Positions 2,320-37,170 of a DNA stretch of 64,000 bases are shown one piece after another (the stretch's first letter is position 1; each line of letters begins with the position of its first letter). This stretch comes from Escherichia phage vB_EcoM_G5211, in the sequence record MK327947.1; one strand, 5' to 3'. A program made the position numbers and the translations under genes. Below the pieces are notes generated by a model. It saw only the letters and a list, made by a program, of their open reading frames with translations. It made no database searches and was not told the origin of the DNA.

Positions 2320-4119
2320 ATGCTAATGTTTAATAACTCCGTTAAATGGTTTACCGGAATTGTAGAAAACAGGGAAGACCCATTAATGCTGGGGCGTGTT
2401 CAGGTTAGGATTCATGGTATACATCCCTCGCTATCCGCACACGGTGACATTCAAGGTCTTCCAACCGAAGATCTATTATGGATTACGCCAGTACAAGATA
2501 TTACAAGCGCGGCGATCTCCGGTATAGGTCAAAGCCCTACTGGTATTGTTGAAGGTTCAATGGTATTTGGTTTGGCTTTAGATGAACGTTATTTAAACTG
2601 CGTTATTCTTGGTACTATTGCCGGACAATATACAGAGAAACCACTCACTACAGAGGGTTTTTGCGACCCTTCTGGTGCATATCCTCGTTATATTGGTAAT
2701 GATGTTAATATTCTTGCTCGTGGCGGTATTAACCCAGAAACCGGACAAACAACAAAACCTGATAGTGTCTATATTCGAGATGAAAACACTGGAGTTGCAG
2801 TAAATCCAGACGACGAGCCATTAGACCAAATTCCGGTTGATGATAATCCTGATTTTACAATCGAAAAAATGCTGCGGGGCGATGAGGGATATCGCGAGAA
2901 ATGGTATCTTGATTCAGAAGGATATCCGACAATAGGCATCGGGCATTTGATCATTTATAAGAAAACCAGTGATCTGGGTATTATCAATAATGAACTTTCT
3001 AAGCTGGTAGGGCGTGAAGTTACAAACGGAAGACTTACCGCCGAAGAAGTTAGTAAAGTATTTGCCGACGATATAGAAAAGACTCGTCGTGATATGCGCA
3101 AACATCCACGAATTGCACCTGTCTATAATAAATGTAATGCCTCACGTCGTATGGCATTAGAAAATATGGCGTTTCAAATGGGTGTTGGTGGATTGGGTAA
3201 ATTTAAGAATAGTCTTGCTGCGATGTTAGCGGAAGAATGGAAACAAGCCTATGATGGATTACGTCAATCGGTATGGGCTAACCAAACTCCAGGACGCTCC
3301 AGCCGTGTTTCTAAAATTATTTTAACTGGTAACTTAGAATCATATGGCGTAATTGCTCCAAAGAAAGAGGAATCAATTTCTGATGATCCGCGAGCACGTT
3401 TGAGAAATGCCCGTATTGCTGCCTATAAGACGCAGAGAGCAGAAGAAGACCCAGAAGCACCGTTTACCCCACAAGACACACGAATCATGTTTAAAGAGCC
3501 TAAGAGTTCGTATTCTGCTAGGTATCCTTATAACCATGTGTACGAGTCAGAGAGCGGTCATATTATCGAGATTGATGATACTCCTTCTCATGAGCGATAT
3601 CATCGTAAACATCCTTCGGGTACATTTGAAGAAACCAGACCGGACGGAACGAGGGTAGAAAAGATTGAAGGCGATGATTATCTGATCGTTAAACAAGGCC
3701 GGAAAGTAAACGTTAAGGGTAATTTGCAAGTTGTTGTTGAAGGTGACGCGCAAGTTTATTATATGGGCAATGTGATGCAAACCGTTGATGGTAACGTCAC
3801 TGAATTTATTCGTGGCAATGTTAATCAGACCGTTGAAGGTACTGCTAACATGCATGTTGTTGGTGATGTTATCGCACAGCTTGACGCTAATTTGACGGCT
3901 AACGTCAAGGGTAATGCTGAATTAATGATCGAGGGTAACACTACCGAAACAATTAAAGGTAACTATGATTTAACCGTTGAGGGTAATTTTAATATGACCG
4001 TCAATGGCACTAAATCAGATCAGGTTAATGGTGACTGGTCCCGTAATTGTGGTGCAAGCGTTAAAGATATTGCATCTGGTACAGTTCAAATTGATGGTAG
4101 CCGTATTGATTTTGGGTGA
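2320..4119 (+). CDS. 5: gp5 baseplate hub / cell-puncturing protein with tail lysozyme domain
   Basis: 599 aa; N-terminal OB-like region, central T4-lysozyme-like motif (DSEGYPTIGIGHL), C-terminal VxGxxxxx beta-helix repeats. Confidence 0.9.
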   Translation: MLMFNNSVKWFTGIVENREDPLMLGRVQVRIHGIHPSLSAHGDIQGLPTEDLLWITPVQDITSAAISGIGQSPTGIVEGSMVFGLALDERYLNCVILGTIAGQYTEKPLTTEGFCDPSGAYPRYIGNDVNILARGGINPETGQTTKPDSVYIRDENTGVAVNPDDEPLDQIPVDDNPDFTIEKMLRGDEGYREKWYLDSEGYPTIGIGHLIIYKKTSDLGIINNELSKLVGREVTNGRLTAEEVSKVFADDIEKTRRDMRKHPRIAPVYNKCNASRRMALENMAFQMGVGGLGKFKNSLAAMLAEEWKQAYDGLRQSVWANQTPGRSSRVSKIILTGNLESYGVIAPKKEESISDDPRARLRNARIAAYKTQRAEEDPEAPFTPQDTRIMFKEPKSSYSARYPYNHVYESESGHIIEIDDTPSHERYHRKHPSGTFEETRPDGTRVEKIEGDDYLIVKQGRKVNVKGNLQVVVEGDAQVYYMGNVMQTVDGNVTEFIRGNVNQTVEGTANMHVVGDVIAQLDANLTANVKGNAELMIEGNTTETIKGNYDLTVEGNFNMTVNGTKSDQVNGDWSRNCGASVKDIASGTVQIDGSRIDFG

Positions 4120-4127
4120 GGTAACTA

Positions 4128-4697
4128 ATGGTTGAAATTCTTCCGATGAGTTCAAAATTGGAGGATATCAGCGAGCGAGAAATCTTTGAGGTGGTGTTCT
4201 CTTATAAAGCAACGCCACCGGATGCAAATACCACATACACGATTAAAGAGTTTAAGATCAGCGAGTATCGCCCTAATAAGGGCGTTACCGTTGAAGAAAC
4301 TAAAATATCTGGTGAGTATAGGGATAGTTTTTCGCTTGGCGCGGATTCTCTTAAATATATAACGAAAGATCGAATTAAAAAATCTGCCGGAAGTTTTGAT
4401 GATTTACCAGATCCAACTACCGCAGATCTATATTATTTTAACGCTCCTACACGTCTACAGGAGGTTTATACTTATAAAGTAACCCTAACCTATATCCAAT
4501 CTGTTTCAGAGTCTTCTGGTGGTTCTGGTGAAGGAAATAGTGGTGGTTCCAGTAGCCGAGAGGGTGCTGGTGAAACTAATCCGCCTCCGGTAGTAACCGA
4601 GCACACAATAGAGAAAGTTTATACTCAAACCGTTTTTGGAAATTGGGATGTGTGGAGTAAACAGTTAAGAGATTATGTTAGAAGAAGTGAGGGATAA
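4128..4697 (+). CDS. Hypothetical protein in gp5.1 position
   Basis: 189 aa ORF directly downstream of gene 5; Gly/Ser-rich middle segment. Confidence 0.5.
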   Translation: MVEILPMSSKLEDISEREIFEVVFSYKATPPDANTTYTIKEFKISEYRPNKGVTVEETKISGEYRDSFSLGADSLKYITKDRIKKSAGSFDDLPDPTTADLYYFNAPTRLQEVYTYKVTLTYIQSVSESSGGSGEGNSGGSSSREGAGETNPPPVVTEHTIEKVYTQTVFGNWDVWSKQLRDYVRRSEG

Positions 4698-4698
4698 T

Positions 4699-5238
4699 AT
4701 GATTGAAGTAATTCATTACACCAAAGAAGATGAAATTTTATATAATAGACTACATGAACTATTTTATGAAGTTGACGGAAAGGTTTATAGAAGGTTCTCT
4801 CGTGGACGTTCTAAAGCCGGAAGTCTAGTTGGTGGATTGAAGATAAATCCATGTGGATATAGATATTGGAGACTTGCTGTTGATGGTAAAGAGTTTCAGA
4901 GGTCTCATGTTGTTTATCATATGCATCACGGACACACTCCAAAAAAACCACTACAAATAGATCATATTAACACAAACTCCCTTGACGACCGAGTTAGCAA
5001 TTTAAGACCAGTAACAGTTACTCAACAAATGTACAACCAAAATAAACAATCCGATTGCACATCTTCATATATTGGTGTTAATTGGAATAAAAATTCCAAA
5101 AAATGGGAAGCTAGAATTAGAGCTAATGGAAAACGAATCCGTTTAGGTCTATTTGATAATGAAATTGACGCTGCGATTGCCTATAACACCGCTGCATTAT
5201 CTAGAGATTCAAAAGTTAACAAATTAAACGATGTATGA
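4699..5238 (+). CDS. HNH homing endonuclease with C-terminal AP2 DNA-binding domain
   Basis: HNH motif (HHGHTPKKPLQIDHINTN...NLR) and AP2-like motif (YIGVNWNKNSKKWEARI...LGLFDNEIDAAIAYN); ATG at 4699 with RBS gaggga; inserted between 5.1 and 5.4. Confidence 0.75.
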   Translation: MIEVIHYTKEDEILYNRLHELFYEVDGKVYRRFSRGRSKAGSLVGGLKINPCGYRYWRLAVDGKEFQRSHVVYHMHHGHTPKKPLQIDHINTNSLDDRVSNLRPVTVTQQMYNQNKQSDCTSSYIGVNWNKNSKKWEARIRANGKRIRLGLFDNEIDAAIAYNTAALSRDSKVNKLNDV

Positions 5239-5253
5239 GGATGGGGGTGTTTA

Positions 5254-5547
5254 ATGGCTGGATTATCCTACGATAAAGCTAAAACTACAGGGCACGGAAA
5301 CTACCCACCTACTGTAATTAATGCAACTCAATCGAAGGTATTTGTTGAGGGTATCCCTGTATTAGTAGAAGGAGACCCAATTACACCACACACAAAAACA
5401 ACAAAGCCTTATGATACACACGGGGGAACTACGGTCGCCAGTACCCCGAAAGTCTTTGTTACCGGAAAGAAAGCAATTCAAATGGCAGATCGTATTAGCT
5501 GTGGCGATACCGTCGCTATGGCATCACCGAAGGTTTATATCAAATGA
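5254..5547 (+). CDS. 5.4: gp5.4-like PAAR-repeat spike-tip protein
   Basis: 97 aa, same size and position as T4 gp5.4. Confidence 0.7.
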
Positions 5548-7448
5548 CAAAGCAAAAGATTACACAAATTCCTGATATTTTTAATGCTGCTACATTCGAT
5601 GAAATTAAAAGCGCATTAACAGACTGGATGAGAAACCAGGAAGAATTTAAAGATTTTGATTTTAATGGTGCTGGTATTAACGTATTGATGGACTTGCTCG
5701 CATATAATACCCTTTATATTCAGCAATTCGCCAACGCCGCGCTATATGAATCTTTTATCAGAACGGCAATTAAGCGTAGTTCAGTTGTTCAAGCCGCGCA
5801 AGATTTAGGATATTTGCCAGCAAGTAAAACTAGTGCATCAACTACAATTATGTTGCATGTATCACATCCACGAAATCCGGCAAGTATTCGAATCCCACGA
5901 GGAACTAAATTTATTGCAAGTGTGGACCGCCAGACGTCTTATCCGTTTGTTACTACAGAAGACGTTGTGAGCGTTTTAGGTTCAAATGGTTTATATACTC
6001 CTATGCTTAAAGTCGCACAAGGTCGTATTGTTCGTACAGAAATGTTATTTGATCCGAAGAAACAAATTCTGATCCGCGATCCTGATATTGACCGCGCTCA
6101 GGTTAAATTGTGGGTGGATGGGGCTGAATGGAAAGACTGGACGCGAGAAAGTATTGTTAATGCAACTGGCGCCAGTAATATTTTCTATATGCGTGAAACC
6201 GTAGACGGTCATACAGAAATCTTCTTTGGTGAAGGTGAATCAACTTTATCTGCTGCTGGCGGTGCACTGGAAGCAAATTATATTGGTGGACTTAAGCCGT
6301 CAACTGGTGCTAATATTGTTATTGAATATATTAGCACTAAAGGCGCGGAAGCAAACGGATCTGTCAATTTCACATACGCGGATACCCTTGCATCTATCTC
6401 TATTGTTAAAATTATTGAGAATCCGACAAATGATCGTGATTATGTCGGTGCAGATGGTGGTGGTGATCCTGAATCAATCGAACGTATTCGTGAACTTGCT
6501 CCGGTAATGCGTGAATCTCAGCGTCGTTGTGTTACTGCTTCCGACTATGAGGCTTTTGTATCTAGCCGTTTTGGTAGTATTGTTCAGGCGGTACAATGTT
6601 TCACCGATCGAGAAAAACCAGGTTATGCTTTTGTTGCTGTTAAGCCTAAATCTGGTTTGCGATTGACAACTATTCAAAAAGAAGATATGCGGGATTATCT
6701 GGCAAAATATAACCTTGCCCCTATCACACCGAGCATCATTGACCCTAACTATCTGTATATTAAACAGAATATTAAAGTTTCCTATTCAATCAATGACTTA
6801 TCAGAATCAGAGCAGTGGTTGCGCGGTGCGGTTATTGATCAGATTGATGCATATTATACCGACGAAGTGGAAATTTTTAACCAGACCTTTAGTAAGTCTA
6901 AAATGCTTGCGCGTATTGACAAAGCTGATGTATCTGTGATAGGTTCTAGTGCAGAAATAGAGATGGTTCGAGAGATCGACAACTTCTATAAAGCACCTAT
7001 GGCGGGAATCAAGTTTTTAAACCAGTATAAGAGCGGAATCAAGTCTAGTTCGTTCAACTTCGAAAAGGACGGTAAACAATACCCGATCCATTATGTAAGT
7101 ACAGAAATGAACAAAGAATCCGGTTTAGCTAAATTGCTGGTTGGACCTTTCCCTGTTGATTCTACAATCGCTTTACCGCACTATTCCGGCACTGATTTTG
7201 ATAAAGAGGTTATTGACGGTGCGGACCTATACTTTGAGGTTGGAGAGGTTCAGCATTATGACGACCTTATTTCATGGGATCTGGGTAAACTGAATATCAA
7301 TAGCGATCGCTTTACTGGTTCATATATTGAGTTGACAGCTAAACCGATTGCTGATAACATCTTTACTAAAGACGGTTCTTTGATCGTGTTTGAAAACGAT
7401 CTCCGTCCTCAGTACACAACTATTAGTCTGGAGGCAATTGCTCAATGA
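5544..7448 (+). CDS. 6: gp6 baseplate wedge protein
   Basis: 634 aa; order and size match T4 gene 6; overlapping start/stop with neighbours. Confidence 0.8.
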
Positions 7449-33968: not shown

Positions 33969-35210
33969 ATGACTCATATTTTTACTGAACTGTTGCGGGA
34001 ATCTACTTCCTCAGTAGCTAACCAGACAGCGCGACCGCAACTATTATCATTAACTCGCGCGGTAAACAACCTGATTTTCTCTGATCTGGTAGCAATCCAG
34101 CCAACGGATCAACCAGTATCTGCATTGTACGGCCTACGTTATCTTAATCGTGATGGTCAGATGACTTTCCGAACTGCTGCGACCTACGGTGGCGCGGCTG
34201 GTGATCGCACAGAGATTGAAGAGTTTTCAAAAGAAAAATCTTATGACGAAGGCGCACTGTTCAAATCAGGCGATGTTGTATACGAAGTTGTGACCGCTGG
34301 TACAGTCGGTGAAGATGCCGAAACTCCAGAATCTGCAATCTTTAAAGGCGTAATGACAAACAAAATTCGTTTCTATAGCGATTGTGCATCGGTAGAATAC
34401 TTTGAAGATAAAAACACCGAAATTGCGTCTACCTCTATGCAGTTTGACAAGTGGCAAGTTAATGTAGGTTCTCGTAAACTGAAAACCTCGTTCACCACTG
34501 AATTAATGCAGGATCTTGAGGCAAGCCAAATCAACTCTGAAAACTCTGTAATTGATCTTCTGGCTACTGTTGCTTCCGAAGAGATCAACAAAGATATTAT
34601 TCAGAAGTTGATCACTGTATCATCTCGCTATAAAATTAAAGGGATCACCCCTGATGGCGTACTTTCTCTCGTTAGCGTTCAGGATGCACCAACACAATCG
34701 CGTGAACTTTACCGCTATGCTTGCGAGATGAGCAATCAAATGTTGCGGACTTCCTCCTTTGCTGGTACATACGTTTTGGCGTCTTCTCGCGTGGTTGGCC
34801 TCCTGCAATCATCCGGTTGGATGGAAGAAACCGACAATGCTCTAAGCGAAGGTCGTCTACGTTGCGGTCTGGAAGTGTACGCAGACACGACAACACCTTT
34901 CGATTATATGCTCGTTGGTTGTAAGCACATGATCGGTGATATGGAGAGTGTCGGTTCTCTGTTCTACTCCCCATATACAGAAGCCGACGGCGCTGGCGCG
35001 TATAAGAGCGTAATTGACCCTAATAGCTTCCAGCATCATGTAGCTATTATGAATCGTTATTCACTCTCTGTCAACCCATACACATCAAAAGTTGATCAGG
35101 AAGAACACCAGGTCATCAAGGGTGACGATTGGGGTAAAATGGCTGGACGTTCAGAAATGTCCTACATTTTAGGAATCGAACTGCCACCACTTGAGATTGA
35201 CAACGCTTAA
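33969..35210 (+). CDS. 24: gp24 capsid vertex protein
   Basis: N-terminus ELLRESTSS...ARPQLLSLTRA parallels T4 gp24; ATG at 33969 preferred over TTG at 33921. Confidence 0.85.
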   Translation: MTHIFTELLRESTSSVANQTARPQLLSLTRAVNNLIFSDLVAIQPTDQPVSALYGLRYLNRDGQMTFRTAATYGGAAGDRTEIEEFSKEKSYDEGALFKSGDVVYEVVTAGTVGEDAETPESAIFKGVMTNKIRFYSDCASVEYFEDKNTEIASTSMQFDKWQVNVGSRKLKTSFTTELMQDLEASQINSENSVIDLLATVASEEINKDIIQKLITVSSRYKIKGITPDGVLSLVSVQDAPTQSRELYRYACEMSNQMLRTSSFAGTYVLASSRVVGLLQSSGWMEETDNALSEGRLRCGLEVYADTTTPFDYMLVGCKHMIGDMESVGSLFYSPYTEADGAGAYKSVIDPNSFQHHVAIMNRYSLSVNPYTSKVDQEEHQVIKGDDWGKMAGRSEMSYILGIELPPLEIDNA

Positions 35211-35798
35211 CTAAATATCTAACCAAGACAAGTCAGATCCGCCAAAGATTTTTTCGACGGCGGATCTATTTTCTTGATGATATAAGTTAAAACATGGTAT
35301 CCCATGTCTACGGGCAACATAAACAGCAATTCTAGTTCCTCCCGAAACGATTCCATTAACTTCTTTCGCCCAAAATATCACACAATCTACAGGGTCATCA
35401 AGTGTCTCACCTAAGACTTGAGCAACATTTCTAGAAAACAGATTTTGCATGTATAACGGTATAGAACGAGGATTATCATAAACGTGTTCTAATTCATCCA
35501 TCGCCAGATTTTTTTGTTCTAAGGTTTGCCATGCAATCACATCATGACCGTTATGCTTGTGGTCATAAAACTTCCAATTTGGAATGAAAATTTTTCTATA
35601 ATCTGGATCGTAATACTTCATGAAAGCATTGTCCATACCGTAAGCCCCTCCAGAATGCGCTACAACGCGATTTTCTGACAATACCCTCCCAATGGTACTA
35701 GCCATTATCAAAATGTCGCTAGGCGCTTTTCTAGAGCCTATTAAAGCACATCTACGAAGTGGTTTTACTCCAAATAGATCTTGTAACTGGTCAAACAT
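35211..35798 (-). CDS. DprA/Smf-like (SLOG superfamily) Rossmann-fold protein
   Basis: Motifs LIGSRKAPSD, VVAHSGGAYGMDNAF and FSRNVAQVLG resemble DprA core; 195 aa; occupies T4 rnlB position. Confidence 0.5.
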   Translation of the reverse strand: MFDQLQDLFGVKPLRRCALIGSRKAPSDILIMASTIGRVLSENRVVAHSGGAYGMDNAFMKYYDPDYRKIFIPNWKFYDHKHNGHDVIAWQTLEQKNLAMDELEHVYDNPRSIPLYMQNLFSRNVAQVLGETLDDPVDCVIFWAKEVNGIVSGGTRIAVYVARRHGIPCFNLYHQENRSAVEKIFGGSDLSWLDI

Positions 35799-35925
35799 AA
35801 TATTTCCTCCATAGAAAGCAATATCATACTACAAGTTAATAACAAATACAAGTATCCGCGTAGCGGAAGCGAGCACAGCGAGCAATAAAAACACTTCCAG
35901 TAATTGATTAATAAATGTTCGAAAC

Positions 35926-35976
35926 AAATTTTTATTATTCTATAAGATAAGTCTTCGTTTTGATCATAATTTAATC
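35926..35976. repeat. Intergenic repeat copy A (aaatttttattattc...cttcgttttgatcataatttaatca)
   Basis: 25-mer cttcgttttgatcataatttaatca identical to 36102-36126; 5' 15-mer identical to window positions 1-15. Confidence 0.6.
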
Positions 35977-36082
35977 ACACATGTAAAAACTACACAAAAG
36001 GATATCGCTTCGCGAACTCCTACGGAGTATAACATTTGTGTTACAATATGTAGTGATTAATAATTAACCAAAGATACATTTT

Positions 36083-36126
36083 CTATGTTCTAAAGATCTT
36101 TCTTCGTTTTGATCATAATTTAATCA
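36083..36126. repeat. Intergenic repeat copy B (tctaaagatctttcttcgttttgatcataatttaatca)
   Basis: Shares a 23-mer with window 14-36 and a 25-mer with copy A. Confidence 0.6.
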
Positions 36127-36180
36127 AACAGTATTAATATTGTGCACATGTAAACTAAAATTATGTTAATAACATATACA

Positions 36181-36205
36181 AAAAAAGCCGCCCCGAAGGA
36201 CGGCT
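36181..36205 (-). terminator. Rho-independent terminator (minus strand)
   Basis: A-run then hairpin agccgcc-ccgaagg-acggct, i.e. hairpin + U-run on minus strand; near-identical copy at 37335-37360. Confidence 0.6.
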
Positions 36206-36213
36206 AATGTTAA

Positions 36214-36697: not shown

Positions 36698-36973
36698 TCA
36701 GGACATTGCCCGTTTGAATGCGTCCATTATAACAGTGTTATTTGGCTTGTCAACACGTTTTTGAACTTTATTTTTAAATTTTTTGTTGATGTGGTGTTTA
36801 CGATAAACAACCTTTTCACGGTTGGCGTAAGCCTCGCGTGCATCTTTTACCATCAACCATGCCTTAGCCGCATCTTGTCCGCTGATCCCGCCAATCTTTT
36901 TAGCAATATCAACAAAATTAAGACCGTGGTCTTCTCGTAGCATGTAAACCATTAACGCTGTTTTCTTGTCCAT
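36698..36973 (-). CDS. Hypothetical protein (91 aa from internal ATG of the 127-aa ORF)
   Basis: ATG at 36973 overlaps the stop of the upstream ORF (ATGA), suggesting translational coupling; longer ORF 36698-37081 is the alternative. Confidence 0.4.
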   Translation of the reverse strand: MDKKTALMVYMLREDHGLNFVDIAKKIGGISGQDAAKAWLMVKDAREAYANREKVVYRKHHINKKFKNKVQKRVDKPNNTVIMDAFKRAMS

Positions 36974-37170
36974 CACTTCGCCCCATTGACGATTAACAGG
37001 ATAGTGATCAGCACCGGAAACTGGATCATGATAGTGCCAATAAACCGGATAAACGCATTTTCTGACTTCCACACATGACATGCGACTAGCTGATATACCA
37101 TTGTTGCCACCAAAGCCAGAAAATACATCTCGATTGGTGTTTCTTTGATCAATCGTACAATCTCATTCAT
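36973..37170 (-). CDS. Small hydrophobic (probable membrane) protein, 65 aa
   Basis: Hydrophobic stretch FLALVATMVYQLVA and C-terminal FPVLITILLIV; preceded by strong promoter. Confidence 0.4.
   Translation of the reverse strand: MNEIVRLIKETPIEMYFLALVATMVYQLVACHVWKSENAFIRFIGTIMIQFPVLITILLIVNGAK

Follow-up and report, generated by a model that had tools for sequence, protein, structure and literature searches.

A stand-alone, DprA-like SLOG protein convergent with gene 24 in a Krischvirus and its association with the RNA ligase 2 gene of related phages

We analyzed a 64,000-nt stretch of the genome of Escherichia phage vB_EcoM_G5211 (MK327947.1), referred to here as the window, and characterized an ORF next to gene 24 that encodes a protein with the SLOG fold (the SLOG gene). 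The window comes from a phage of the genus Krischvirus (RB49/Phi1 group). Over the 4.7 kb surrounding the SLOG gene, it is 98-99% identical to 58 deposited Krischvirus phages, including RB49, Phi1, and GEC-3S, and the gene itself is 98-100% identical to the deposited Krischvirus genes. It corresponds to Phi1 ORF164 (phi1p164; DNA identity to Phi1 98.7%), which RefSeq names "DprA-like DNA recombination-mediator protein". In the Phi1 annotation, the local gene order is 23 and 24 followed, on the opposite strand, by ORF164, ORF165, 24.3, ORF167, hoc, and inh. The features of the locus are as follows.

33969..35210, plus strand: gene 24 (head vertex protein), the convergent neighbor (ORF listing and Phi1 annotation)
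35211..35798, minus strand: SLOG ORF, 195 aa, ATG start, TAG stop (ORF listing), orthologue of Phi1 ORF164
35235..35276, plus strand: hairpin AGATCCGCC...GGCGGATCT followed by AUUUUCUU (folding and sequence)
35799..36213, minus strand: AT-rich non-coding gap of 415 nt, 5' of the SLOG ORF, the rnlB slot in relatives
35806..35810, minus strand: Shine-Dalgarno sequence GGAGG, 7 nt 5' of the SLOG ATG (read from the sequence)
35846-35851 (TTGTAT) and 35823-35828 (TATGAT), minus strand: weak sigma-70-like promoter candidate with a 17-nt spacer
35835-35851 and 36165-36181: 17-nt repeat, each copy preceded by a hairpin
35944-35981 and 36093-36130: direct repeat of 38 nt, copies 89% identical
36186-36205, minus strand: intrinsic terminator, a strong hairpin AGCCGTCC-TTCG-GGGCGGCT with a T-run

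The ORF listing of the window contains a single ORF over 35211..35798, on the minus strand, in agreement with the 195-aa protein proposed in the initial annotation. That annotation had also placed the gene convergent with gene 24 with zero intergenic bases, and indeed the two stop codons abut (gene 24 TAA at 35208-35210, SLOG TAG as the complement of 35211-35213). The hairpin at 35235-35276 has a folding energy of -20.4 kcal/mol (z -4.83), and none of 200 shuffled sequences folded as well. It is probably the terminator of gene 24. This candidate terminator sits within the last ~20 codons of the SLOG ORF, at its 3' end, and the C-terminal tail encoded over it is the sole low-confidence part of the structural model described below (pLDDT 56-78). 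Further along the minus strand, a mechanically called ORF of 127 aa at 36698-37081 carries DUF2774 at aa 42-104; the corresponding Phi1 gene 24.3 is only 276 nt long, and the true start is probably an internal ATG.

The 415-nt gap separates ORF165 from the SLOG gene. A promoter scan found no coding-strand site at or above the consensus threshold directly upstream of the SLOG gene; the candidate listed above, read by eye, has 8 of 12 consensus matches and falls under the scan threshold. A search of the gap against Rfam returned nothing near a gathering score. In RB49 and Phi1, promoter-early stem-loop (PeSL) cassettes drive gene shuffling (PMC2839356), and by analogy the gap looks like such a cassette. 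It may mark the route by which rnlB was lost.

We then considered the fold of the protein, which the initial annotation had described as a DprA/SLOG-like Rossmann protein. Structure prediction bore this out. The AlphaFold (AF2) model (pLDDT 94, pTM 0.89) has the three-layer Rossmannoid alpha/beta architecture and parallel sheet of solved SLOG structures, with glycine-rich loops after strands 1 and 2 and a GG(x)T helix cap, and no unrelated fold ranked best. Foldseek placed H. pylori DprA first, followed by a MoCo-carrier protein, LOG, ShosA, and ThsA. In the viral structure library BFVD, the nearest models were other phage "DprA-like" proteins (TM 0.75-0.80), with YspA-type SLOGs at only TM ~0.45.

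At the sequence level, the expected match to DprA PF02481 was the only one in Pfam, but it was below the cut-off (22.2 bits vs 29.6) and confined to aa 15-60. All 32 relatives examined gave the same weak match, and a profile built from them aligned to PDB structures of DprA over their first 50 residues only; the same profile search gave no significant LOG match (9us2, E 0.15). The score against TIGR00732 was 14.3 bits, with a cut-off of 191. Bacterial DprA/Smf proteins (PDB 3maj, 4ljk/4ljr, 3uqz) are multi-domain, and E. coli Smf has 374 aa, whereas the phage protein is a single domain of 195 aa in the model, with no SAM domain and no C-terminal winged-helix. Compared with DprA, it has an additional N-terminal helix, a ~40-aa family-specific insert (aa 73-114), and C-terminal helices. 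The protein is a stand-alone SLOG-superfamily domain on the DprA side and is no DprA orthologue. The name "recombination mediator" is a homology-based label transferred from DprA. PHROG 768, which includes Phi1 ORF164 (YP_001469510) and RB16p235, matches the protein over its full length (E 3e-60; aa 15-186 on profile positions 4-180 of 191) and is the same family, with no differences.

We examined the motifs quoted in the initial annotation. GSRKAPSD (aa 21-28), SGGAYGMDNAF (aa 49-59), and FSRNVAQVLG (aa 121-130) are all present, and the predicted C-terminal Rossmann strand was found as a strand-helix unit with SGGT (aa 152-155). Four motifs line the pocket.

35730..35738, minus strand: motif 1, G21-S22-R23 after strand 1, invariant, aligned to DprA IGTR
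35631..35654, minus strand: motif 2, S49-G-G-A-x-G-x-D56, glycine-rich loop after strand 2 (DprA: SGLAxGID)
35418..35432, minus strand: motif 3, R123-N124-x-x-Q127, invariant, aligned to the DprA/ShosA 'RN' motif
35325..35342, minus strand: motif 4, G153-G154-T155-x-x-A158, with Ala at the position of the LOG catalytic Glu

Across 32 homologues with identity down to 26%, the residues G21, S22, R23, S49, G50, A52, G54, D56, R123, N124, Q127, G153, G154, T155, and A158 are invariant, and the quoted motifs are kept in 164-175 of 176 family members. Judged by this conservation, they are no chance matches. In a MAFFT alignment that included E. coli Smf, S. pneumoniae DprA, R. palustris DprA, and ShosA, all four motifs were in register. 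In HpDprA, R52, R143, and R170 (ShosA R139, R234, and R261) bind ssDNA. Mutating the first two of these in ShosA and HpDprA eliminates both ssDNA binding and function; among the ShosA substitutions, R139E and R234E destroy function but R261E leaves it intact (PMC12961424). The invariant R23 aligns with the core ssDNA-binding arginine HpDprA R52 / ShosA R139 and the invariant R123 with HpDprA R143 / ShosA R234. The third arginine (HpDprA R170 / ShosA R261) aligns to no conserved basic residue. A Gln three positions after the Asn of motif 3 is common to the phage family and ShosA. LOG enzymes, which are cytokinin riboside 5'-monophosphate phosphoribohydrolases, carry a catalytic Glu in the motif PGGxGTxxE; the equivalent position in the phage protein, three residues after T155, is Ala158, and the family has Ala there in 167 of 175 members and Asp or Glu in none.

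A word-indexed protein search returned only 6 relatives. The true size of the family became apparent when 1.84 billion cluster representatives (clusters at 50% identity) were searched exhaustively by HMM, with 4,319 matches at E <= 1e-3 and 2,728 at E <= 1e-10. The window SLOG gene, which had been deposited and named before, belongs to a very large family, most members of which are stand-alone proteins of 170-200 aa. Using tblastn, we found the gene in 1,330 deposited phage genomes, from phages of Klebsiella, Pseudomonas, Escherichia, Aeromonas, Acinetobacter, Vibrio, and other hosts. It also occurs on large plasmids (23-32, of which twelve are typed as conjugative), where its neighbors include genes for ssb, SOS-response-associated (SRAP) peptidase, RdgC, DUF1071, CoiA, and ParB. 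Nine SLOG loci inspected in bacterial genomes resemble prophages or nucleotide-metabolism islands. Clustering of 1,515 ORFs from 83 loci identified no conserved neighbor outside T4-like phages, and the neighbors in distant phages (PTH2, GapR, GMP reductase, NAMPT, SF1 helicase) are lineage-specific only. In two metagenomic phage loci (L021 and L024), NAMPT lies at most three genes from the SLOG gene.

Among ten long members of the family, four are fused to NADAR, one to DUF4326, and one to a complete RecJ (DHH, DHHA1, OB). A further DUF4326 fusion is an Achromobacter protein with this domain at its end, and two plasmid copies are annotated as Macro-domain proteins. Two of the four NADAR fusions, the metagenomic proteins P0040 (1,475 aa) and P0042 (1,488 aa), combine the SLOG domain with YAcAr, LDcluster4, and a C-terminal NADAR, and are reminiscent of the polyvalent proteins that phages and conjugative elements inject. 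Iyer, Burroughs, Anantharaman, and Aravind described the same fusion network for viral SLOG domains and read it as processing of ADP-ribose derivatives (PMC9503650). The T4 NADAR protein gp30.3 (AdfN) has since been shown to strip ADP-ribose from DNA and to defeat DarTG1 (PMC11825919). Since AdfN acts on DNA, a nucleic-acid-binding partner domain is at least as plausible as a small-molecule one.

The fusions bear on what the pocket might hold. Iyer et al. (2022) preferred small ADPr derivatives as ligands of viral SLOG domains (PMC9503650), which counts against a nucleic-acid ligand. Following the proposal of Iyer, Burroughs, and Aravind, the protein could be an enzyme or sponge for a small soluble ADP-ribose-derived or nucleotide molecule (cADPR isomers, ADPr derivatives, or AMP), cleaving or sequestering an immune signal or toxic metabolite. 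We consider this unlikely. The LOG catalytic Glu is absent family-wide, the nearest structure and the sole sequence match are DprA rather than LOG, YpsA, or ThsA, YspA-type SLOGs are structurally remote in BFVD, and NADAR targets DNA-linked ADP-ribose and not a soluble signal. The SLOG domain of ThsA, the Thoeris cADPR sensor, binds 3'cADPR as part of a SIR2-effector fusion; it is more distant from the phage protein and gave no sequence match.

Small-molecule action has also been proposed, in the EVADES preprint, for the anti-AVAST protein ORF83. Deletion of ORF83 from phage DruSM1 lowers plating on AVAST type III, the only phenotype we found for a phage "Smf/DprA" gene, and the later preprint predicts a LOG-like AMP hydrolase. 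We traced ORF83 to its CAjan homologue gp82 through the knock-out primer sequences. Like the window protein, ORF83 is a stand-alone phage SLOG, with the analogous motifs TGGRD, HGDADGVD, YRNQ, and PGGAGTMD, and relatives with a DUF4326 fusion also occur; both domain types are found together in P0040 and P0042. However, ORF83 is a YspA/YAcAr-type SLOG of 130 aa that keeps an acidic residue after GT. No PF10686 match was found in the window protein or its relatives. Membership in one family was rejected, as a search of all CAjan ORFs with the family profile (A2) reached E 0.46 at best and hhalign a probability of 0.7%, with gp82 undetected. Because the families differ, the anti-AVAST phenotype cannot be transferred to the window gene and bears on the superfamily only.

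The closeness of fold and motifs to DprA, the RdgC, DUF1071, and ssb genes among the plasmid neighbors, and the suggestion of Iyer et al. (2021) that phage DprA/Smf is an extra ssDNA-binding protein (PMC7824862) would fit a true recombination mediator, which binds phage ssDNA and, like DprA in transformation, loads UvsX or host RecA. Such a role is improbable. The Pfam and TIGR00732 scores of 22 and 14 bits fall short of 29.6 and 191, only aa 15-60 align, the SAM and winged-helix domains are missing, and the ~40-aa insert is specific to the family. Krischvirus already has UvsX and uvsY-region genes for this task, and its clusters of recombination and replication genes do not include the SLOG gene.

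ShosA and PsyrA are DprA-like antitoxins of abortive-infection systems, and by analogy with phage NADAR (AdfN) acting against DarTG1, the protein could be an orphan mimic of their DprA-like antitoxin domain that neutralizes ShosTA/PsyrTA. This seems highly improbable, as ShosA has 328 aa, a SAM domain, a dimerizing helix alpha-14, and a PRTase toxin as its partner, whereas the phage protein is solitary and its matches span only ~45 N-terminal residues. It has neither the SAM domain nor the C-terminal helix, which ShosA needs for stability and dimerization. In none of the nine bacterial loci was the SLOG gene paired with a recognizable toxin; neither a PRTase nor a RecQ toxin was found among the neighbors scanned against Pfam.

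We next turned to the position of the gene. T4 carries rnlB, directly convergent with gene 24, at this site, as the initial annotation stated. The same annotation suggested that the SLOG gene replaces rnlB; this holds for the position but not for substitution, since both genes coexist in other T4-like phages. In Citrobacter phage Moon, Klebsiella phage kv_tblp8, and RB16, the SLOG gene is located directly downstream of rnlB on the same strand, with a reading-frame overlap of 1 nt in kv_tblp8 and 11 nt in RB16. Rnl2 was found within 6 kb in 14 of 85 SLOG loci, all 14 of them T4-like, and conversely the SLOG gene is directly downstream of rnlB in 25 of 62 Rnl2 loci. The RB16 pair is away from gene 24, between srd and a NAMPT gene (L005:2938-7282); it lies beside srd and three genes upstream of nicotinamide phosphoribosyltransferase. 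A functional substitute for RNA ligase 2, which the shared position and orientation with T4 rnlB, the lack of rnlB in Krischvirus, and one GenBank record reading 'putative RNA ligase' might suggest, is effectively refuted by this coexistence, with the genes adjacent in no fewer than 25 phage loci, and is further opposed by an unrelated fold without nucleotidyltransferase motifs and by T4 having rnlB and no SLOG gene. The record is that of the orthologue in Escherichia phage Skers (MW748999; L002:4311-4898). Its label is apparently a positional carry-over from T4 rnlB, because the protein lacks a ligase fold.

Searching with three Rnl2 proteins by tblastn, we found no rnlB elsewhere in the window or the rest of Phi1 (best E 3.4) and no Rnl2 remnant in the 415-nt gap. 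Because the pair is adjacent in relatives and Rnl2 is absent from Phi1, Krischvirus is best described as having lost rnlB and kept the neighboring SLOG gene. Phi1 keeps rnlA and pseT, together with gp30.3 (NADAR), in the absence of rnlB (L091:617-1096 and 2737-5601). Retention of the tRNA-repair pair and of the DNA de-ADP-ribosylase is therefore independent of Rnl2. In Aeromonas phage 44RR2.8t.2 (L086:3540-5482), the SLOG gene overlaps the start of a 479-aa ORF beside gene 55 that has no Pfam match, and in Phi1 the same place beside gene 55 is occupied by ORF044, a 489-aa DEAD-box-like ORF (L089:27724-29193).

Our search of the literature found no paper linking rnlB with a DprA-like SLOG gene. 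The adjacency in 25 of 62 loci, the overlapping frames in at least two genera, and the presence of the pair at a different site in RB16-type phages raise the question of whether rnlB and the SLOG gene form a two-gene cassette for nucleic-acid repair or counter-defence, in which the SLOG protein would hold the in vivo target of Rnl2. The same proposal has the SLOG protein acting alone in Krischvirus, or with NADAR, Macro, or DUF4326 against ADP-ribosylated nucleic acid. Taken together, we regard this more specific proposal as doubtful.

The best explanation, which we put forward tentatively and at somewhat less than an even chance, is that the SLOG protein binds single-stranded nucleic acid, has no catalytic activity, and aids repair or counter-defence. 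Binding is favored over LOG-like hydrolysis mainly because the LOG Glu position is Ala and never acidic, and work on nucleic acids is suggested by the fusions, the adjacency to rnlB, and the plasmid neighbors (ssb, SRAP peptidase, RdgC, DUF1071, and ParB). The median pI of the family, 8.5, is in line with this explanation. Under it, the protein would keep in full the phosphate-binding pocket that DprA and ShosA use for single-stranded DNA, and the family would never have had the LOG-type catalytic glutamate. The ligand would be single-stranded nucleic acid, or a nucleotide or ADP-ribose-bearing lesion on a single strand. The protein, probably made early in infection, would hold this substrate for enzymes nearby or fused to it, such as RNA ligase 2, NADAR, Macro, DUF4326, or RecJ, so that phage nucleic acids are repaired or shielded against host attack. 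In Krischvirus, it would work without Rnl2. The analysis establishes the ORF, its fold and motifs, the gene order, the fusions, and the size of the family; the ligand, the absence of catalysis, the timing, and the role in infection are inferred.

Several observations count against a nucleic-acid binder. The same type of pocket also binds mononucleotides (LOG), cADPR (ThsA), and Moco (MoCo carrier), so the motifs alone are no proof of a nucleic-acid ligand. The invariant Asp56 could be a catalytic residue, and the adjacency to rnlB, seen in Straboviridae only, may be inherited synteny. The third ssDNA-binding arginine of DprA is not conserved, and the window protein is mildly acidic, with a pI of 6.4.

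The window itself adds nothing beyond the existing RefSeq annotation, and apart from the association with RNA ligase 2 that related phages conserve, the find is an ordinary one. The family, on the other hand, is among the commonest uncharacterized accessory domains of large phages and conjugative plasmids, and showing its ligand would annotate thousands of genes. The ligand might also account for the association of the domain with RNA ligase 2, the infection role of which has been a question since 2002, and with enzymes that strip ADP-ribose from DNA.
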